Sequence record: NC_011040.1
Length of the DNA stretch: 39,816 nucleotides
Strand: one strand, 5' to 3'
Origin: Escherichia phage BA14
Below, piece by piece: positions 1 through 39,816 of the stretch. Positions within the stretch are counted from its first letter, which is position 1. Each line of letters starts with the position of its first letter. The notes under the pieces are model-generated. The model was not told the DNA's origin, ran no database searches, and was given only the letters and a program-made list of their open reading frames with translations. Position numbers and translations under genes: made by a program.

Positions 1-194
1 TCTCATAGTTCATACAAAGTGTTTACCCCCTATGGCCTCCTTCAGTTCCCCAAAGAGTGCCACCCCTTATGGTAACTTATGGTTTACTTAATGTCAATCA
101 TTATGTGAGACATTGGGTGAATCATTGGGATGACCACTAGATATAGTGTGTGGGAGACCTTATGACCACTATATGTAGTCCTCTCTGTGTCCCT
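1..194. repeat. Left direct terminal repeat (exact copy of 39623-39816)
   Basis: Bases 1-194 are identical to 39623-39816 when read from the sequence; T7-family genomes carry terminal direct repeats of this size. Confidence 0.95.
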
Positions 195-205
195 ATCTGT
201 AATTA

Positions 206-300
206 CCTTATGTTTCCTCTTAGGGTATAACTGAGAGTATCACCTTATGTCTATCCTTATGGCTGCCTATCCTTATGTTAACCTTCAGTCGGTGCCTTCA
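206..300. repeat. Array of CCTTATG/CTCTTAG/CCTTCAG heptamer repeats just inside the left terminal repeat
   Basis: CCTTATG at 206, 243, 255, 271; related CTCTTAG at 217 and CCTTCAG at 283 and 294; same heptamer also inside the terminal repeat (65, 158). Confidence 0.6.
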
Positions 301-5727: not shown

Positions 5728-6285
5728 ATGTTTACTTTCATCACTTCAGTAGGCGCTCTCGTATCAACCATTCTTGCAGCAACATACTATAATCGTTCAA
5801 AGGTATTTCTCACTAAGCTAATCAAAGAAGAGAAGAACTCTCATGCACTCAAAGAGAGACTTGAAGATGGATGGCGAGAGAAGCAGGAACTAGCTGGTCG
5901 AATCCGTACCTTAGAGTTCGAACAACAATATGACATGTCGAACCAACGAGAACTCATTGAGCGTCTACGTGCTGAGGCAGTGGAGTACCGCAAGGAACTT
6001 AAAGAAGCCAAGAAGATTATCCGTGAGTATACACACAGTGACATCACGTCTATCAAGTTTACTGCTCACATCCCGGATGCTGGATGGAAGCGCACTGAGT
6101 TCAAGCTGGGTCTTGGCTCGTGTGGTAAGCAAGTCACATGTCTACATTGGGTTGAACAAGCCGACCGCTATCTGCTGACACAGACGTGCACTGACGGTGA
6201 GCGCAAAGAGTTCACCTACTATAAGAAAGATGTAGCGGGTCGCATTGAGATTGCACGTAAGGTTGCAGACAATACGACTCACTAA
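5728..6285 (+). CDS. Hypothetical membrane-anchored coiled-coil protein (gene 1.05 position)
   Basis: 185 aa from ATG 5728 preceded by AGAGGAAAC RBS and a TTAACTTTA epsilon-like motif; N-terminal TM helix, charged heptad-rich middle, Cys-containing C-terminus; sits between gene 1 and gene 1.1. Confidence 0.7.
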   Translation: MFTFITSVGALVSTILAATYYNRSKVFLTKLIKEEKNSHALKERLEDGWREKQELAGRIRTLEFEQQYDMSNQRELIERLRAEAVEYRKELKEAKKIIREYTHSDITSIKFTAHIPDAGWKRTEFKLGLGSCGKQVTCLHWVEQADRYLLTQTCTDGERKEFTYYKKDVAGRIEIARKVADNTTH

Positions 6286-6292
6286 TGGGAAA
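6270..6292 (+). promoter_or_regulatory. Phage RNAP promoter cAATACGACTCACTAATGGGAAA (phi1.1-like)
   Basis: T7-family promoter core; the stop codon of the upstream ORF (6283-6285) lies inside it. Confidence 0.8.
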
Positions 6293-6300
6293 CACTGAAA

Positions 6301-6343
6301 GTTAAACTCAAGGTCATCACTTCTGGTGGCCTTCATGATTAAC
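6301..6343 (+). promoter_or_regulatory. RNase III-type processing hairpin (R1.1 position)
   Basis: Lower stem GTTAA/TTAAC, internal loop, upper stem AAGGTCAT/GTGGCCTT; same element recurs at 6821 and 13571. Confidence 0.6.
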
Positions 6344-6376
6344 TGTCATTAACTATACACACAAGGAAACAACATT

Positions 6377-6526
6377 ATGCGTACCAACTTCGAACCAACT
6401 ACCAAGCGCAACAACGTAATCAATGAACACGGTGCTGAATGGCAGGAACGTAAAGACCGCATGAAGAAACGCCACAAGACACAACGTGGCAACGCTGAGA
6501 AACGTAACTGGAAGGAGGCACTCTAA
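6377..6526 (+). CDS. 1.1: Small basic protein gp1.1
   Basis: 49-aa ORF (below the ORF-track cutoff) with RBS AAGGAAAC; highly basic, as for T7 gp1.1; stop overlaps the gene 1.2 start (TAATG). Confidence 0.6.
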   Translation: MRTNFEPTTKRNNVINEHGAEWQERKDRMKKRHKTQRGNAEKRNWKEAL

Positions 6527-6798
6527 TGGGTCGCTTATACAGTGGTAACTTAATAGCATACAAAGACGCTATCGAACGACTCAAAGAAGACCACGATGTG
6601 AGTGTGGTCGTTGAGACTTTCCGCTATGAGAACTATGCGAGGATGCGCTGGGTATCAGGTGAGACTCTTCGAGTGGTCTTGCGGAATGGATTAGTGTTAA
6701 CCTCCAAGTGTTTCGAACAGGACGATGAAGACGTTCGCTGCAATGCACAGACTGAATGGCTTCGTAAGGTACACAGTGACCTGAAGCACTGGAAGTAA
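6526..6798 (+). CDS. 1.2: gp1.2, inhibitor of host dGTP triphosphohydrolase
   Basis: 90 aa; N-terminus MGRLYSGNL and C-terminus DLKHWK match T7 gp1.2 as I recall it. Confidence 0.8.
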   Translation: MGRLYSGNLIAYKDAIERLKEDHDVSVVVETFRYENYARMRWVSGETLRVVLRNGLVLTSKCFEQDDEDVRCNAQTEWLRKVHSDLKHWK

Positions 6799-6818
6799 TA
6801 CGACTCACTAATGCGAGA
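6796..6818 (+). promoter_or_regulatory. Phage RNAP promoter TAATACGACTCACTAATGCGAGA (phi1.3-like)
   Basis: T7-family promoter core overlapping the gene 1.2 stop; initiating region GCGAGA is atypical. Confidence 0.7.
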
Positions 6819-6820
6819 GA

Positions 6821-6862
6821 GCTAAACTCAAGGTCATCTATACGGTGGCCTTTGTGATTAAC
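6821..6862 (+). promoter_or_regulatory. RNase III-type processing hairpin (R1.3 position)
   Basis: GCTAAACTCAAGGTCATctatacGGTGGCCTTTGTGATTAAC, second copy of the 6301 element. Confidence 0.6.
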
Positions 6863-6899
6863 TTTTGTTTACTTAATAACCAACAATAGGAGTTCCATC

Positions 6900-7976
6900 A
6901 TGGAAATCACATTCAAGACTAACCCTTTTAAAGCTGTATCCTACGTTGAGTCTGCCATTAAGAAAGCACTCGACAAAGCTGGCTACCTGATTGCTGACAC
7001 TAAGCATGATGGTGTACGTGGTAACATCGTGGTTGACAATACGGCTGACTGCCTGTGGCTATCCCGTGTCTCCAAGACCATCCCCGCGCTTGAGCACCTT
7101 AATGGGTTCGACCAACGCTGGGCTAATGTTCTCAAAGATGACCGCTGGATTTTCCCTGATGGCTTCATGCTTGATGGTGAACTGATGGTCAAAGGCGTAG
7201 ACTTCAACACAGGGTCTGGCCTACTGCGTACCAAGTGGCTCAAGAAGACAAACTGTGGATTTGATATTGGTGGAGTAGAGCCTCTCAAGGGGAGTAAAGT
7301 AGACTTCTGCTTAGACCCTAAGAAACTTAAGGTTGTCCTGTATGCTGCTATGCCGTATCACGATATGGTAGAAGGCAAAGAGTATGGCGTTATGTCCCTC
7401 CTGATGCAAGAGCATGTGCGTTACCTCATTCCGGTTCTTAGTGAACACTTCCCGGAAATCACTTGGGAACTATCTGAAGCCAAGGAAGTCTACGACATGG
7501 TAGAACTTCAGGAACTCTACGAGAAAGCTCGTGCTGAAGGTCATGAAGGTCTGGTTGTCAAAGACCCGCTGGAAGTCTACAAGCGTGGTAAGAAGTCTGG
7601 CTGGTGGAAGATGAAACCTGAGAATGAAGCTGATGGTGTTATCGTTGGCCTCAATTGGGGTACTCCGGGTCTCGCTAATGAAGGCAAAGTGATTGGCTTC
7701 GAGGTTCTCCTTGAGTCAGGTCGCGTAGTTAACGCCAACAACATTAGCCAAGAGTTGATGGACGAGTTCACCGAGAAGGTAAAGGAGAAGACACTAAGTG
7801 ACTGTGGGTTCTTCAGTCCATACGGAATCGGAGACAATGATGCCTGTACGCGTAACCCTTATGAGGGCTGGCAGTGTCAGGTAGCCTACATGGAGGAAAC
7901 ACCAGACGGTTCTCTGCGTCACCCATCGTTCGTTATGTTCCGTGGTGTCGAGTCAGACCCAACGGTCAAGATGTAA
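6900..7976 (+). CDS. 1.3: ATP-dependent DNA ligase (gp1.3)
   Basis: 358 aa; adenylation motif TKHDGVRG near the N-terminus; length and position as T7 ligase. Confidence 0.95.
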   Translation: MEITFKTNPFKAVSYVESAIKKALDKAGYLIADTKHDGVRGNIVVDNTADCLWLSRVSKTIPALEHLNGFDQRWANVLKDDRWIFPDGFMLDGELMVKGVDFNTGSGLLRTKWLKKTNCGFDIGGVEPLKGSKVDFCLDPKKLKVVLYAAMPYHDMVEGKEYGVMSLLMQEHVRYLIPVLSEHFPEITWELSEAKEVYDMVELQELYEKARAEGHEGLVVKDPLEVYKRGKKSGWWKMKPENEADGVIVGLNWGTPGLANEGKVIGFEVLLESGRVVNANNISQELMDEFTEKVKEKTLSDCGFFSPYGIGDNDACTRNPYEGWQCQVAYMEETPDGSLRHPSFVMFRGVESDPTVKM

Positions 7977-7986
7977 ATCAACATAT

Positions 7987-8020
7987 GGTCAGACTTTCGG
8001 GTCTGGCCTTTTCGTGTTTC
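7987..8020 (+). terminator. Intrinsic terminator after ligase (TE position)
   Basis: GGTCAGAC-tttcgg-GTCTGGCC 8-bp stem followed by TTTTCGTGTTTC. Confidence 0.6.
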
Positions 8021-8041
8021 TATTAGACTCACTATGGAGGA
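8019..8041 (+). promoter_or_regulatory. Phage RNAP promoter, divergent (tcTATTAGACTCACTATGGAGGA)
   Basis: Core GACTCACTAT retained, upstream half degenerate, initiating GGAGG as in T7 phi1.5/phi1.6 as I recall them. Confidence 0.5.
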
Positions 8042-8049
8042 ACAACCTC

Positions 8050-8130
8050 ATGCTATTTCTAATTATTGCTAGCGTTGCTGCCACGTTTGCCTTCGTTATC
8101 ATTGACGACAACTGCTGGCCTGATTGCTAA
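8050..8130 (+). CDS. Hypothetical 26-aa hydrophobic peptide
   Basis: ATG 9 nt after a GGAGG RBS; MLFLIIASVAATFAFVIIDDNCWPDC; lies between two phage promoters. Confidence 0.4.
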   Translation: MLFLIIASVAATFAFVIIDDNCWPDC

Positions 8131-8150
8131 TACGACTCACCTATGGAGGA
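8128..8150 (+). promoter_or_regulatory. Phage RNAP promoter-like sequence with altered -4 to -1 (TAATACGACTCACctatGGAGGA)
   Basis: Perfect -17 to -5 match, but four substitutions in the -4 to -1 melting region. Confidence 0.4.
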
Positions 8151-8157
8151 AACACTT

Positions 8158-8421
8158 ATGTTACGACTACACTTCAACAAATCAAATGGCATCTTCTCTG
8201 CCCGTGGCGCTGACCGTTCAACCGTTCTGGCCTCTGAGAAACACGCAGTCATTCCTAAAGTGCTTGGCTCGACCATTGAGTTGGCACCTCGTGTTCACGC
8301 TGTGATTACGACTGGCTTATATAAAGAAGCGACCACTGGCTCCCGGCCTTTCATTCCGGTTCTCGTCACCCGTTTCCCTAAAGTCCGTCTGGTGATTGCA
8401 CGTATCAAGGAGGTGTTCTAA
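8158..8421 (+). CDS. Hypothetical protein (gene 1.6 position)
   Basis: 87 aa from ATG 8158 with RBS GGAGGAAAC; the longer ORF-track start at 8143 lies inside the promoter and lacks an RBS. Confidence 0.6.
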   Translation: MLRLHFNKSNGIFSARGADRSTVLASEKHAVIPKVLGSTIELAPRVHAVITTGLYKEATTGSRPFIPVLVTRFPKVRLVIARIKEVF

Positions 8422-8792
8422 TGTCTGGTTGCATCGCATGTTTAGAGAAAGATGACCGCTACCCGCATACCTGCAAAACAAAGCACACCAGTGAGTGTAC
8501 AATCTGGAATGGTGCTGGTGTATGTAGTTGCACTAAGTCAGACAAACCACAAGATATAGAGGGTGTTCGGACTCCGAGCCACTATATGTTGTTTGATGAC
8601 ATTGAGGCTATTGAAGTGATTGCCCGGTCGATGACCCGCGAACAGTTCAAAGGGTACTGCTTAGGGAACATCCTTAAGTACCGCCTCCGTGCTGGTAAGA
8701 AATCCGAACTGGCATTCTTAGAGAAGGACATGGCGAAAGCTGGGTTCTACGGTGAACTGTACGAGAAACATAAAGGTAAGTGCTATGCTTAA
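8421..8792 (+). CDS. gene 1.7-position protein with N-terminal Cys cluster and a phage-typical C-terminal module
   Basis: 123 aa, RBS AAGGAGG; six Cys in the first 40 residues; the C-terminal pattern TPSHY...IEVI...LGNILKYRLRAGKK resembles a widespread small phage domain (DUF3310-like, from memory). Confidence 0.65.
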   Translation: MSGCIACLEKDDRYPHTCKTKHTSECTIWNGAGVCSCTKSDKPQDIEGVRTPSHYMLFDDIEAIEVIARSMTREQFKGYCLGNILKYRLRAGKKSELAFLEKDMAKAGFYGELYEKHKGKCYA

Positions 8793-33626: not shown

Positions 33627-35594
33627 ATGGCTAATAAAATTTCCACTGTACGTACTTACCCGCTGAACGGTGCCGTGAACTTCACGATTACCTTTGAGTA
33701 TTTAGCACGTAAGTTCGTCCAAGTGACACTCATCGGGAAAGACCGTAAAGAGTTGGTTCTCAATCAGGACTATCGCTTTACCACTAAGACCCAAATCACA
33801 ACCTCCCGTACATGGACTGCCGCTGATGGTTATCAGATGATTGAGATTCGTCGATTCACATCTGCAACCGACCGTCTGGTTGACTTTGCTGATGGCTCAA
33901 TCCTTCGTGCGTATGACCTTAACATCTCACAGATTCAGACGCTGCACGTAGCTGAAGAGGCACGAGACCTAACTGCGGATACCATTGGTGTCAACAATGA
34001 TGGTCACTTGGATGCCCGTGGTCGTAAGATTGTGAACCTAGCGTTCGCCACCAGTGACTATGATGCTGTCCCACTGAAGCAAGTAAAAGAGCGCGAGTCG
34101 TCTGCTTGGAACGCTGTTAACAAGGCCAATGAACATGCTAACCGCTCTAACACTGAGGCTAACCGCTCGCGAGATGAAGCTGACCGTGCAAAACGTGAAG
34201 CTGACCGCTCAACCCAACAGGCAGGTGTCTCTACGGCACAGGCAGTTGAGTCCAAGAAGCAAGCTGACCGTTCCAACTCTGAGGCTAACCGAGCTAAAGG
34301 TTATGCTGATAGTATGACCGCAAGTGTCGCTGAGGCCAAGAAGCAAGCTGACCGTTCCAACTCTGAGGCCAATCGTGCCCGTGATGAGGCCAATCGTGCT
34401 GCCGGAGAAGTGACTAAGGCTGCTGCTGAGGTTGCCAAAGCTGCTGCACACGTTGCTACCGCTAAAGGTCATGCTGACCGCGCCAACACTGAGGCTAACC
34501 GTTCCAAAGGTGAGGCTGACCGTGCTAAGGCCGAGGCCGATAAGTTGGGCAACATGAATGGCCTAGCTGAGACAGTTGAGAAGGTTGATGCTCCAGATGT
34601 CTACTTCAAGCGTAATGTGATTGCTGGCCACCGTCTGGAGACTAAGGGTGGTTCCCATCTACACCCTAACGAGTTGAAATTGGTGAACACTAAGTCTCCT
34701 GACCAGCACTTTATCGTACAAGCATGGGGCACTGGTGACCCAAACAATAGGGCACAGGTGTTTGAACTTAGGGATAACTTAGGTCCATATGCGTTTTACA
34801 TTCAGCGAATGAAGAAGACTGACCAAACGTGGCAAATGAGTGTGAATGGCACTGTTAGCTGTGTATCCGTTGAGGCTGGTAAGGGGTTCATCTCTAAGGA
34901 CAGTACAGGCTCTATTCAAATGAAAACGTGGGGTGGCAGTTGGAACCAGTGGACATCAAATGCTGTTCCAGACATTCAGCATGACATCGAAGCCCAACAT
35001 GATGCGGCTTATCTGCTGGAGAGGGCAACCATTTGGGGCAAAGAGCACCTGTATGCTAAGTGCTTATACAACAATGGCGGTGGCGCTAACTTCTTTATCA
35101 GACATTATCTCCGTGGGACTTACTTCGACTTCAGGAGTGATGGTACTCTTAGTGGCTCGACTGGTTGGTATATCCCGCCAGATGGCAACCTGTACATCAA
35201 GAAATATGGACTGTATATTGATACGTGGGTTAACAATCGCTTGGGCGAACACGCCTACAATAAGGGCGAAGTCAACAACTTGGTCAATGGTCGTCTTACC
35301 GCTGGTCAAGGTGATGGTCGATATGTCCGCAAGAACGCTGGGTGGGCTGAGGTCTGGAAAGGCTCTGCTGGTGGTGGTGTCTCCGTAGGTCTCTCACAGG
35401 ATGTCCGATGGAGAACTATCTGGATTCAAACTCAAGGACGCTGGAACCCGGTTCAGATTGGCGATAACGGGCCATACTACATCTCTTCTATGGGTGGGTG
35501 GCTACAGTTTACAATCTCCAACAACGGGAGAACTTTCCGAAATGATGCTGACCGTAGTTCTGTACCTACGAGAATCTTAGTTCAAAACCAATAA
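33627..35594 (+). CDS. 17: Tail fiber protein (gp17)
   Basis: 655 aa; N-terminal ~150 aa and C-terminal ~90 aa match T7 gp17; central coiled-coil region is repeat-expanded. Confidence 0.95.
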   Translation: MANKISTVRTYPLNGAVNFTITFEYLARKFVQVTLIGKDRKELVLNQDYRFTTKTQITTSRTWTAADGYQMIEIRRFTSATDRLVDFADGSILRAYDLNISQIQTLHVAEEARDLTADTIGVNNDGHLDARGRKIVNLAFATSDYDAVPLKQVKERESSAWNAVNKANEHANRSNTEANRSRDEADRAKREADRSTQQAGVSTAQAVESKKQADRSNSEANRAKGYADSMTASVAEAKKQADRSNSEANRARDEANRAAGEVTKAAAEVAKAAAHVATAKGHADRANTEANRSKGEADRAKAEADKLGNMNGLAETVEKVDAPDVYFKRNVIAGHRLETKGGSHLHPNELKLVNTKSPDQHFIVQAWGTGDPNNRAQVFELRDNLGPYAFYIQRMKKTDQTWQMSVNGTVSCVSVEAGKGFISKDSTGSIQMKTWGGSWNQWTSNAVPDIQHDIEAQHDAAYLLERATIWGKEHLYAKCLYNNGGGANFFIRHYLRGTYFDFRSDGTLSGSTGWYIPPDGNLYIKKYGLYIDTWVNNRLGEHAYNKGEVNNLVNGRLTAGQGDGRYVRKNAGWAEVWKGSAGGGVSVGLSQDVRWRTIWIQTQGRWNPVQIGDNGPYYISSMGGWLQFTISNNGRTFRNDADRSSVPTRILVQNQ

Positions 35595-35642: not shown

Positions 35643-35849
35643 ATGTTGTCTTTAGATTTTAACAACGAGGTAGTGAAGGCTGCTCCGATTGTAGGGACAG
35701 GTGTAGCCGATGGTGCTGCCCGTCTATTCTTCGGACTGTCCCTTAACGAGTGGTTCTATGTAGCCGCAATTGCCTACACAGTGGCTCAAATTGGTGCCAA
35801 GGTAGTCGATGTGATTATCAAATGGAAGAAGGAGGGTAAAGATGTCTAA
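35643..35849 (+). CDS. 17.5: Holin (gp17.5)
   Basis: 68 aa from ATG 35643 (RBS AAGGAGG); MLSLDFNNE..AAPIVGTGVAD...LNEWFYVAAIAYTV near-identical to T7 gp17.5. Confidence 0.9.
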   Translation: MLSLDFNNEVVKAAPIVGTGVADGAARLFFGLSLNEWFYVAAIAYTVAQIGAKVVDVIIKWKKEGKDV

Positions 35850-36111
35850 CGATAAATCTTTGATTCAATTCCTTGAGATGCTGGACACTGAGATGGCTCA
35901 ACGTATGCTTGCTGACTTGCAGAATGATGAACGCCGAACACCTCAACTGTACAACGCAATAGGGAAACTGTTAGAGCGCCACAAGTTCCAAGTCTCCAAG
36001 TTACAGCCAGACCGTAACATCCTTGGTGGACTTGCTGATGGCCTAGAAGAGTACCAGAACTTGGTAGGCTCCGATGGTCTGACTGAAGACGAGAAGTACA
36101 CGCTGAACTGA
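35842..36111 (+). CDS. 18: Terminase small subunit (gp18)
   Basis: 89-aa ORF overlapping the holin end, RBS GGAGGG; size and position of T7 gp18. Confidence 0.8.
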   Translation: MSNDKSLIQFLEMLDTEMAQRMLADLQNDERRTPQLYNAIGKLLERHKFQVSKLQPDRNILGGLADGLEEYQNLVGSDGLTEDEKYTLN

Positions 36112-37227: not shown

Positions 37228-38985
37228 ATGTCTACTCAAGCAAACAAGAATGCGCTCATCGTGGCGCAACTTAAGGGTGACTTCGTGGCCTTCCTGTTCG
37301 TCTTATGGAAGGCTCTGAACTTACCTAAACCAACCAAGTGTCAGATTGATATGGCACGTACACTCGCTAACGGCGACCACAAGAAGTTTATCCTTCAGGC
37401 GTTCCGTGGTATCGGCAAGTCCTTTATCACCTGTGCGTTCGTTGTGTGGGTCTTATGGCGTGACCCTCAACTTAAGGTGCTCATTGTGTCTGCCTCTAAG
37501 GAACGTGCGGACGCTAACTCCATCTTCATTAAGAACATCATTGACCTGCTGCCATTCCTCGCTGAGTTGAAACCTCGACCGGGACAGCGTGACTCTGTGA
37601 TTAGCTTCGACGTTGGCTTGGCGAAACCCGACCACTCACCTTCTGTGAAGTCTGTGGGTATCACTGGTCAGTTGACTGGTAGTCGTGCTGACATCATTAT
37701 CGCAGATGACGTTGAGGTTCCCGGCAACAGTTCTACAAGCTCTGCTCGTGAGAAGCTGTGGACACTGGTAACTGAGTTTGCTGCGTTACTTAAGCCGTTA
37801 CCTACCTCTCGCGTTATCTACCTTGGGACACCTCAAACCGAGATGACTCTCTATAAGGAACTTGAGGATAACAAAGGGTACAGCACAGTAATCTGGCCAG
37901 CACAGTATCCACGCAATGACGCTGAGGCTCTCTACTATGGCGACCGACTGGCTCCTATGCTTAAGCAAGAGTATGATGAAGGCTACGAGATTCTTCGTGG
38001 ACAACCTACTGACCCTATTCGATTCGATATGGATGACCTCCGTGAACGTGAACTCGAATATGGCAAAGCTGGCTACACTCTTCAGTTCATGCTCAACCCT
38101 AACCTGTCCGATGCTGAGAAGTACCCGCTGAGGCTCCGTGATGCCATTGTGTGCGCAGTGGACACTGAACGTGCCCCATTGTCCTACCAGTGGTTGCCGA
38201 ACCGTCAGAACCGCAATGAGGAACTTCCTAACGTGGGTCTGAAGGGTGACGACATTCACAGCTTCCATGTGTGTTCCTCTAAGACCGCTGAGTACCAGCA
38301 AAAGATTCTCGTCATTGACCCCTCTGGTCGTGGTAAGGATGAAACGGGTTACGCAGTCCTCTACACCCTGAATGGCTACATCTACTTGATGGAAGTCGGT
38401 GGGTTCCGTGGTGGCTACGATGACCCTACCCTAGAGAAGCTCGCTAAGAAGGCCAAGCAGTGGAAGGTACAGACGGTCGTACACGAGAGTAACTTCGGTG
38501 ATGGTATGTTCGGTAAGGTATTCTCTCCGGTTCTCCTGAAGCACCACAAGTGTGCCTTAGAAGAGATTCGTGCTCGTGGCATGAAGGAGATGCGTATCTG
38601 CGACACTATCGAACCGTTGATGGGCGCACACCGCCTTATCATCCGTGACGAAGTAATCCGTGAGGACTACCAGACCGCTCGTGACCTTGATGGGAAACAT
38701 GATGTTCGCTATAGTGCGTTCTATCAGATGACCCGTATGACTCGTGAGAAGGGCGCTGTGGCACACGATGACCGACTTGATGCTATCGCATTGGGTATCG
38801 AGTTCCTTCGTGAAGGGATGCAGGTGGACTCTAAGGTGGGCGAGGAAGCTATGACACTTGAGTTCCTTGAACACCACATGGAGAAACCTATCATCGGTGG
38901 TGACATGGCTCGTGAGTTAGTGTCTGGAGGTGTGGACATCTACTATGAGGACGATGGCGATGGAGAGTGCTTCATTGAGTGGTAA
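37228..38985 (+). CDS. 19: Terminase large subunit (gp19)
   Basis: 585 aa, RBS TAGGAGG; Walker A-like FRGIGKS and extensive collinearity with T7 gp19. Confidence 0.97.
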
Positions 38986-39072: not shown

Positions 39073-39095
39073 TAATACGACTCACTATTGGGAAG
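39073..39095 (+). promoter_or_regulatory. Phage RNAP promoter TAATACGACTCACTATTGGGAAG (phiOR-like)
   Basis: T7-family promoter downstream of gene 19, oriented toward the right end. Confidence 0.85.
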
Positions 39096-39180
39096 GGCAC
39101 CCTAAGACAACTTAAAGACACTTATAGACTGCATATTCAAAGTGCATACTTAGTGACTACTCTTAGAGACCCTTACAGTG

Positions 39181-39251: not shown

Positions 39252-39407
39252 ATGCGCTTACTATCCGTGCTCAAGACACTGGCAACGCATCGAGTGACCT
39301 ACAAATTTCTCGTTGTACTTGCTGCTTCCATTGGTCTCGCATCTAGTGCTGAACACATCGGTGAACTGGAGACTCTGCTTTGTTCTCTACTCACTTGTGT
39401 TTCTTAG
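39252..39407 (+). CDS. 19.5: gp19.5 small protein
   Basis: 51-aa ORF with RBS AAGGAGG; HRVTYKFLVVL resembles T7 gp19.5 as I recall it. Confidence 0.7.
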   Translation: MRLLSVLKTLATHRVTYKFLVVLAASIGLASSAEHIGELETLLCSLLTCVS

Positions 39408-39575
39408 GCTACTCATTGGCGCTTAGTGCGCTCTTAGTGATTATGGTCGATATACATCTTCCCTATAATCACTGTAAGAAGTCAACTCTAAGAGTATCCC
39501 TTATGTACCCTCTATGGTCTACAGGGTCTCTTAGGGTCTCACCTTATGATAGAGCCTCTGTGGTTAACCTTATGA
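39405..39575. repeat. Array of CTCTTAG/CCTTATG heptamer repeats just inside the right terminal repeat
   Basis: CTCTTAG/CTCTAAG and CCTTATG copies at roughly 39430, 39487, 39499, 39528, 39542 and 39568, mirroring the left-end array. Confidence 0.6.
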
Positions 39576-39622
39576 GACTTGATGTACCCTTTAAGAATCC
39601 TACAGAAAAATCTGAGTGGGTA

Positions 39623-39816
39623 TCTCATAGTTCATACAAAGTGTTTACCCCCTATGGCCTCCTTCAGTTCCCCAAAGAGTGCCACCCCTTATGGTAACTT
39701 ATGGTTTACTTAATGTCAATCATTATGTGAGACATTGGGTGAATCATTGGGATGACCACTAGATATAGTGTGTGGGAGACCTTATGACCACTATATGTAG
39801 TCCTCTCTGTGTCCCT
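39623..39816. repeat. Right direct terminal repeat (exact copy of 1-194)
   Basis: Identical to bases 1-194. Confidence 0.95.

Follow-up and report, generated by a model that had tools for sequence, protein, structure and literature searches.

Do the ends of the BA14 record coincide with the ends of a linear phage genome, and what are the short repeats that crowd around them? The window, that is, the whole 39,816-nucleotide stretch analyzed here (NC_011040.1), corresponds to the entire linear genome of coliphage BA14 (Autographiviridae, Studiervirinae, Berlinvirus), which is already published. The feature at its ends is real, was read correctly by the original prediction and is already known in kind as the standard genome-end architecture of the T7 family. 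Its parts are all typical of the T7 group, namely the short-repeat arrays, the terminal repeat with its boundaries, the hairpin, the junction signal and the promoters phiOL and phiOR. Several of these parts are annotated in the public record of phage K11. Our analysis has little import beyond correct annotation; its modest additions are a cross-genus tabulation of heptamer cores, natural mosaics in which core and gene 18 are uncoupled, the ATCTGTA variant of the junction signal and a likely spurious open reading frame (ORF). Judging from sequence comparison, it is highly probable that the 194-bp repeat and the sequences on both of its sides form a T7-type concatemer junction and that BA14 is represented here by its whole linear genome.

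Terminal repeat and genome ends

A prefix/suffix test on the whole window returned a longest shared prefix and suffix of exactly 194 bp, with positions 1-194 identical to positions 39623-39816, as the original prediction had claimed. The left direct terminal repeat (DTR; 1-194, + strand) begins with TCTCATAGTT and ends with TGTGTCCCT. The right copy (39623-39816, + strand) is immediately preceded by the block ...AAAAATCTGAGTGGGTA, which is near-identical in all eight aligned Berlinviruses, three of them with 1-3 base differences. The bases adjoining the two copies differ, ATCTGTAATT following the left copy and TGAGTGGGTA preceding the right copy, so the boundaries are sharp. These boundaries (GGGTA/TCTCATAGTT and TGTGTCCCT/ATCTGT, the slash marking the edge of the repeat) are, to the base, those of T7, T3, K11 and FE44. 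The shared pattern reads ...TCTGAGTG..TA/TCTCAyAGT at the left edge of the repeat and ...TGTGTCCCT/ATCTGT at its right edge. The deposited ends of Kvp1 are one base out of register with it.

The repeat also has the expected size. T7-group genomes of ~40 kb carry an exact, non-permuted direct repeat of ~150-250 bp, and the same prefix/suffix test yielded 160 bp for T7, 231 bp for T3, 181 bp for K11, 178 bp for K1F and 226 bp for Berlin. Annotated terminal repeats of close relatives measure 193 bp (FE44) and 194 bp (Kvp1), the latter having been checked by primer walking on virion DNA (PMC2579914). The repeats of BA14 and T7 begin and end with the same bases (TCTCA... and ...CTCTCTGTGTCCCT), and the left ends of BA14 and T3 are identical over the first 13 bases, TCTCATAGTTCA(T/A)....

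The window spans gene 0.3 through gene 19.5. Exact-sequence look-up matched gp0.3, gp19, gp19.5 and a 105-aa ORF ("unknown product") to proteins of phage BA14, and BLAST against phage records gave 92-94% identity to Berlinvirus members (FE44, 285P, Kvp1, PYPS50 and others). Collinearity with Erwinia phage FE44 extends from one end of BA14 to the other, both repeats included, with 93% of the sequence aligned. Gene organization is T3-like. The first gene encodes a SAM hydrolase of T3 type, whereas that of T7 encodes the Ocr protein. Together with the boundaries shared with T7, T3, K11 and FE44, collinearity and gene content bear out the original claim of an intact linear genome.

Could the terminal duplication instead be an assembly artefact, produced by opening a circular or circularly permuted genome with overlapping ends? 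Several close relatives (for example P694, S523, CarlSpitteler and pEa_SNUABM_57) were indeed deposited in permuted or "circular" form with a single repeat copy in mid-record, and physical ends are not demonstrable by sequence alone. This explanation is nevertheless very improbable. The edges of the BA14 repeat fall to the base on the conserved T7-group ends TCTCAyAGT.../...TGTGTCCCT, the cut sites of the group, which an arbitrary assembly overlap would not give. Moreover, the 194-bp repeat of Kvp1, a phage 93% identical over the region, was verified on virion DNA (PMC2579914), and short-read assemblers yield permuted records from genomes with terminal repeats (PMC10438801). In the permuted or circular relatives, the one repeat copy lies between their right and left ends. 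A record that very probably carries the true genome ends should help to orient or complete Berlinvirus assemblies deposited permuted or without terminal repeats.

Elements flanking the terminal repeat

The sequences on both sides of the repeat follow the order found in T7: gene 19, phiOR, gene 19.5, an inverted repeat, the right array, the repeat itself, ATCTGT(A), the left array and phiOL. Gene 19 (37228-38985, + strand) encodes the large terminase subunit and is an exact match to BA14 gp19 (YP_002003498.1). Gene 18 (35842-36111, + strand) encodes the small terminase subunit and aligns with the annotated gp18 of relatives, with identities of 96% to FE44, 74% to T3, 72% to T7, 75% to K11 and 45% to K1F. 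With this gp19 and a gp18 that is 72-75% identical to its T7, T3 and K11 counterparts, the terminase, the trans-acting partner of the junction, is of the T7 type.

Downstream of gene 19, the phage promoter phiOR (TAATACGACTCACTATTGGGAAG; 39073-39095, + strand) is one of ten matches to the promoter pattern TAATACGACTCACTATWGGGAGA in the window, where none was expected. Its position equals that of the annotated phiOR of T7, T3 and K11 and of annotated promoters of FE44 and Kvp1. It is followed by CTTAAAGAC-type repeats, more of which occur at 418-443. Gene 19.5 (39252-39407, + strand; 51 aa) has exactly the sequence named gp19.5 in BA14 and other Berlinviruses.

Between gene 19.5 and the right array lies an inverted repeat, AGTGATTAT(N20)ATAATCACT (39436-39473), whose arms are complementary at 9 of 9 positions. 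Its DNA fold has a computed energy of -7.7 kcal/mol (z = -4.4). Inverted repeats able to form a hairpin also follow gene 19.5 directly in T7, T3 and K11, and the folding z-scores of the junction inverted repeats range from -2.8 to -4.4. FE44 carries the compensatory pair AGTGATAAT/ATTATCACT in place of AGTGATTAT/ATAATCACT. Between genera the arms also change together, AGTGAT../..ATCACT in BA14 replacing AGGGAT../..ATCCCT in T7. The T7 inverted repeat spans 39568-39608 and is centered 190 bp to the left of the right repeat, compared with 168 bp in BA14. A passage in PMC2680503, citing Kim et al. 1997, places an "M-hairpin" next to T7 gene 19.5 and links deletion of the region to defects in concatemer processing. 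From position and structure, we take 39436-39473 to be the probable counterpart of this M-hairpin.

The right array is separated from the repeat by a block at 39589-39622 (+ strand; CCCTTTAAGAATCCTACAGAAAAATCTGAGTGGGTA) that is 97% conserved across eight Berlinviruses. Its last part is common to T7, T3 and K11, T7 having ...AAAAATCTGAGTGACTA directly before the right repeat where BA14 has ...AAAAATCTGAGTGGGTA. On the left side of the genome, a phiOL-like phage promoter (CTTATACGACTCACTATTGAGAA; 349-371, + strand) was read from the sequence. It has four mismatches to the genome's own promoter consensus, is conserved in relatives and sits at the position of the annotated phiOL of T7, T3 and K11. 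Both phiOR and the phiOL-like site point rightward, as in the T7 group.

Matches to bacterial promoters complete the picture. Two sigma-70-like promoters are predicted by sequence match at 595-623 and 685-714, and T7 likewise has phiOL and E. coli promoters downstream on the left, as it has phiOR, gene 19.5 and the hairpin upstream on the right. Within the repeat, a putative leftward sigma-70-like promoter (TTGACA-17-TACCAT; 69-97, - strand) is a consensus match that, reading from 97 to 69, resembles the annotated leftward A0 promoter inside the T3 repeat. The right flank also holds four T7-primase-type sites, all on the + strand; 2% of same-size windows reach four, so the clustering is unconvincing.

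Several observations on T7 and T3 bear on how such a junction works. RNA polymerase pauses at the junction and interacts with gp18/gp19, and the second repeat copy is synthesized during maturation. According to work citing Chung and Hinkle 1990, a plasmid needs no more than a T7 origin and the concatemer junction to be packaged. By analogy, replicated BA14 genomes would recombine through the repeat into head-to-tail concatemers in which each junction holds one repeat copy. Phage RNA polymerase starting at phiOR would then read rightward through the right array and the repeat and pause at the concatemer junction (CJ) signal, where the paused complex would help to load terminase (gp18/gp19) and the prohead. 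Terminase would cut at the fixed repeat boundaries, and the repeat would be duplicated by local DNA synthesis, a step that would require the hairpin region on the left side of the right array, leaving a copy at both packaged ends. As BA14 has all cis elements in T7 order and a T7-type gp18/gp19, this pathway is the one that best explains the junction. The junction defined here also delimits a minimal segment for cloning transducing plasmids packaged by BA14.

The CJ signal-like heptamer ATCTGTA (195-201, + strand) lies directly to the right of the repeat, where T7, T3 and K11 have ATCTGTT and where the K11 record annotates 180-188 as "concatemeric junction". Its seven columns are 100% identical in eight relatives, and the variant is present in all Berlinviruses examined and in K1F. 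BA14 thus shares ATCTGT with T7 and matches the T7 signal at 6 of 7 bases, with A instead of T at position 7. ATCTGTT is a class II pause/termination signal of T7 RNA polymerase located at the T7 concatemer junction, and any base change in it is reported to abolish termination by this polymerase, which makes ATCTGTA a counterpoint to the pathway. Either A at position 7 is tolerated by the polymerases of Berlinviruses and K1F, or the pause is not a conserved step; a pause of RNA polymerase at the BA14 signal, suggested by analogy, is unproven.

Heptamers in and around the repeat

CCTTATG occurs 17 times in the window compared with 3.4 ± 1.75 times in dinucleotide shuffles, none of 100 of which reached 17. 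For a non-redundant view, the right flank, one repeat copy and the left flank were joined into a concatemer junction of 744 bp. All nine copies that it contains are on the + strand, with none in reverse orientation, whereas the remaining 38.9 kb of the genome body has five on the + strand and one on the other (Poisson P ~2e-15 from the body rate). In 1000 dinucleotide shuffles of the same stretch the top 7-mer never exceeded a count of five.

Exact + strand copies start at 206, 243, 255 and 271 in the left flank and at 39499, 39542 and 39568 in the right flank. The repeat contributes two more (65-71 and 158-164, corresponding to 39687 and 39780 in the right copy). It also has three relatives with one mismatch on the same strand, CCCTATG (28-34), ACTTATG (75-81) and CATTATG (99-105), as well as CCTTCAG (39-45, + strand), which is two positions off CCTTATG. 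The wider family takes in CCTTCAG (39, 282 and 295) and CTCTTAGGG-type variants. Thus the left array (202-310, + strand) comprises the four exact copies, the two CCTTCAG at 282 and 295 and CCTCTTAGGG at 216. The right array (39481-39588, + strand) comprises the three exact copies and the variants CCCTCTATGG (39509), TCTCTTAGGG (39527) and CCTCTGTGG (39555). The clusters predicted from the sequence are therefore present in both flanks and inside the repeat, except that the copy listed at 75 is the one-mismatch ACTTATG. The right cluster had been drawn too wide, at about 39430-39575: exact copies begin only at 39499, and 39419-39473 is occupied by a GCGCTTAGTG/GCTCTTAGTG direct repeat and the 9-bp inverted repeat, with no heptamers. 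Within the arrays the heptamers form tight clusters 11-16 bp apart. Tandem Repeats Finder did not report the heptamer arrays when run on the window because their spacing is irregular. The BA14 heptamers are dispersed iterated sites and not a tandem repeat.

We take the left array to be the equivalent of the T7 short-repeat array named SRL, and the right array presumably corresponds to SRR. The T7 arrays were reportedly first described by Dunn and Studier in 1983.

An alignment of BA14 with eight Berlinvirus relatives showed that the segments are conserved to very different degrees. The right array is 94% conserved, and the non-coding right flank as a whole, at 94-97%, is no less conserved than the coding gene 19.5 (92%). 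The repeat interior averages 83% identity across the eight relatives. Conservation is lowest in the left array (72%) because units have been gained and lost: FE44 and CarlSpitteler have 4-5 copies of a 26-bp unit that includes the heptamer and is present once in BA14, and several left-array copies are missing from Kvp1. In other respects these relatives are very close. FE44 and Kvp1 share the CCTTATG heptamers and ATCTGTA with BA14, their right ends are 93-96% identical to it, and the repeat of FE44, with the same boundaries, is 93% identical. Across the arrays and the repeat, heptamer columns are 92% conserved compared with 84% for other columns, and none of the eight relatives has a change in the copies at 39542, 39568 and 271.

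The original prediction also pointed to comparable arrays in T7, and this holds. CCTAAAG is the top junction 7-mer of both T7 (13 copies, three of them within its repeat) and T3 (9 copies), on the same strand, in both flanks and inside the repeat, at positions equivalent to those in BA14. T7 and BA14 thus differ in core and in the number of exact copies (13 versus 9) over an equivalent span, as they do in repeat length (160 versus 194 bp). T3 differs from BA14 by its CCTAAAG/CTTAAAG heptamers, by ATCTGTT and by its longer repeat (231 bp). The top junction 7-mer is CCTTATG in BA14, FE44, Kvp1 and Berlin (7-12 copies), CCTACAG in K1F (6 copies) and ACCTGAG in K11 (6 copies). In all eight phages, which represent five genera, the top heptamer has no reverse-strand copy and is found in both flanks; it also occurs inside the repeat, except in K1F. 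Same-strand arrays of a 7-bp motif on both sides of the repeat are thus common to BA14 and the T7 group.

This distribution recurred in a wider survey. A gp18 profile retrieved 80 loci from IMG/VR, 69 of which had enough downstream sequence to be scored. CCTTATG is present in every scored locus with a gp18 at least 92% BA14-like, and CCTAAAG in T3-like and T7-like loci. K11-like loci carry a mix of CCTGAGG, CCTTAGG and CCTTGGG (CCTKRGG), and CCTAATG was found in two further lineages. The common frame is CCT-NNN-G with a lineage-specific center, and orientation and placement are kept across genera. This combination of a variable core with a constant CCT...G frame, orientation and placement is a mildly useful comparative point.

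Possible roles of the heptamers

Our literature search found no source that gives the heptamers a function in any T7-group phage. That such arrays are implicated in packaging, as the original prediction puts it, can reasonably be said of the entire junction, given that origin plus junction suffices for packaging and that deletion of the M-hairpin impairs processing. It does not carry over to the heptamers.

Two natural mosaics from the survey are informative. In L036, a gp18 that is 91% BA14-like is combined with a gp19 whose C-terminal part is 94% T7-like, a T7-like right end and CCTAAAG arrays. L044 has a gp18 only 72% T3-like, a gp19 that is 98% T3-like and T3-type CCTAAAG arrays. Hence in both mosaics the heptamer type follows the gene 19/right-end module and not gene 18, an association that could mean involvement of gp19 or plain physical linkage. 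The copy number of the left array varies freely among close relatives, so many copies must be dispensable. T3 and T7 packaging is reported to discriminate between the two DNAs, yet both phages carry CCTAAAG, so the heptamers alone cannot determine specificity. Our preferred reading, put forward tentatively, is that the heptamers may be iterated, oriented, low-information contact or architectural sites for a packaging/processing complex at the junction, individually dispensable and evolving with the gene 19/right-end module.

The strongest competitor, possible though doubtful, holds that the heptamers have no sequence-specific reader but are products of slippage and recombination, kept as spacer or flexible DNA and homogenized by concerted evolution. 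The left array behaves in this way, growing and shrinking by 26-bp tandem units among close relatives and being only 72% conserved. Likewise, the core differs by lineage while the architecture persists, and K11-like phages mix three cores. Such a process does not readily account for the strict orientation, with no reverse-strand copy at the junctions of eight phages, or for the CCT...G frame retained across five genera. Nor does it account for the dispersed, non-tandem copies in the repeat and right flank, which are conserved in position across Berlinviruses, for the three copies intact in all eight relatives or for heptamer columns that are better conserved than their surroundings. We therefore argue against slippage debris alone as the whole story, while the variable left array fits slippage.

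Alternatively, the heptamers might be specific binding sites for gp18, comparable to the small-terminase sites at lambda cosB and SPP1 pac, with a core that co-evolves with gp18. Their arrangement is suggestive, as the copies are iterated, in one orientation, tightly clustered and near the cut sites. The six reference phages are compatible with it as well: the gp18 proteins of T3 and T7 are ~91% identical and both phages have CCTAAAG, while BA14, K11 and K1F differ in gp18 (72-75% and 45%) and in core. The mosaics make this reading rather improbable, since L036 pairs a BA14-like gp18 with CCTAAAG arrays and L044 has T3-type arrays despite its divergent gp18. Overall, at least three gp18 types, mutually 71-76% identical, are found together with CCTAAAG.

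CCTNNNG might also serve as a lineage-specific recognition code for packaging or processing, with gp19, or a factor that travels with the gene 19/right-end module, as its reader. The central triplet (AAA, TAT, ACA or KRG) would then help a phage to distinguish its concatemers from those of relatives infecting the same cell. We regard this as quite unlikely. The two mosaics are compatible with such a code, and physical linkage explains them equally.

Finally, the right-hand heptamers might be codons of a real gene, their repetition reflecting a repetitive peptide, as a 105-aa ORF with a TTG start (39380-39697; "unknown product") covers the array and is annotated in both BA14 (YP_002003502.1) and FE44. 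This is scarcely credible, as the frame stops after 10-52 codons in six of the eight relatives, the ORF would extend into the terminal repeat, and the left flank and the repeat have the same heptamers where there is no ORF. The right-array region moreover carries indels of 1, 2, 22 and 43 nt in relatives, which rules out coding. We rejected the coding explanation on the truncated frame, the indels and the single homolog, the protein cluster having only two members (BA14 and FE44) among 15 billion sequences. The ORF over the right array is likely spurious.

The junction signal and the left heptamer array

The heptamer at 195-201, immediately right of the left copy of the terminal repeat, reads ATCTGTA, compared with ATCTGTT for the class II signal of T7. 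This variant is common to FE44, Kvp1, Berlin and K1F, whereas T7, T3 and K11 have T in place of A at the last position. According to published work, T7 RNA polymerase no longer terminates at a signal altered in any way; hence either the polymerases of the ATCTGTA phages are different or pausing is not conserved. The adjoining left array is a tandem repeat of variable copy number among relatives (window 202-242; FE44 locus L001, 200-310; CarlSpitteler locus L011). BA14 has a single copy of its 26-bp unit, CACCTTATGTTTCCTCTTTGAGTCAT, against 4-5 copies in FE44 and CarlSpitteler. In addition, phiOL of CarlSpitteler is preceded by a long stretch of (GA)n.

Features of the right flank

Downstream of gene 19.5, a conserved inverted repeat (39436-39473) occupies the position of the T7 M-hairpin. 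Its arms carry a compensatory double change in FE44 relative to BA14, and hairpins are found at the equivalent place in T7, T3 and K11 with co-varying arm sequence. The flank additionally contains four T7-primase-type recognition sites ([GT]GGTC), all on the + strand between 39444 and 39538. Clustering of these sites is marginal, as the same count is reached in ~2% of 215-bp genome windows. The right array is spanned by a 105-aa ORF (39380-39697) that enters the terminal repeat and carries the label 'unknown product' in the BA14 annotation (YP_002003502.1). This ORF is probably not a gene, since only 10-52 codons of it are left in 6 of the 8 relatives.

The IMG/VR locus L036 (IMGVR_UViG_651703085_000001, 5834-8428) belongs to a mosaic phage, which combines a BA14-like gene 18 with a T7-like C-terminal part of gene 19 and right end. 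An insert of ~800 bp splits its gene 19 between alignment residues 161 and 148, and is possibly a homing-endonuclease or intron-type insertion.

Promoter-associated and tail fibre repeats

Inside the terminal repeat, a putative leftward sigma-70-like promoter (TTGACA-17-TACCAT, 69-97, - strand) was recognized by consensus match only. The candidate recalls promoter A0 of T3, which is likewise annotated as leftward and within the terminal repeat. Directly after phiOL and phiOR, at 418-443 and 39104-39129, lie short tandem repeats of the types CTTAAAGAC / ACTTAAAGAC, which resemble the AT-rich, origin-associated regions that follow both promoters in T7. Two further tandem arrays with a 21-bp (7-codon) unit, GCTGACCG..AAA.CTGA., are located in the tail fibre gene 17 region at 34137-34210 and 34473-34537.
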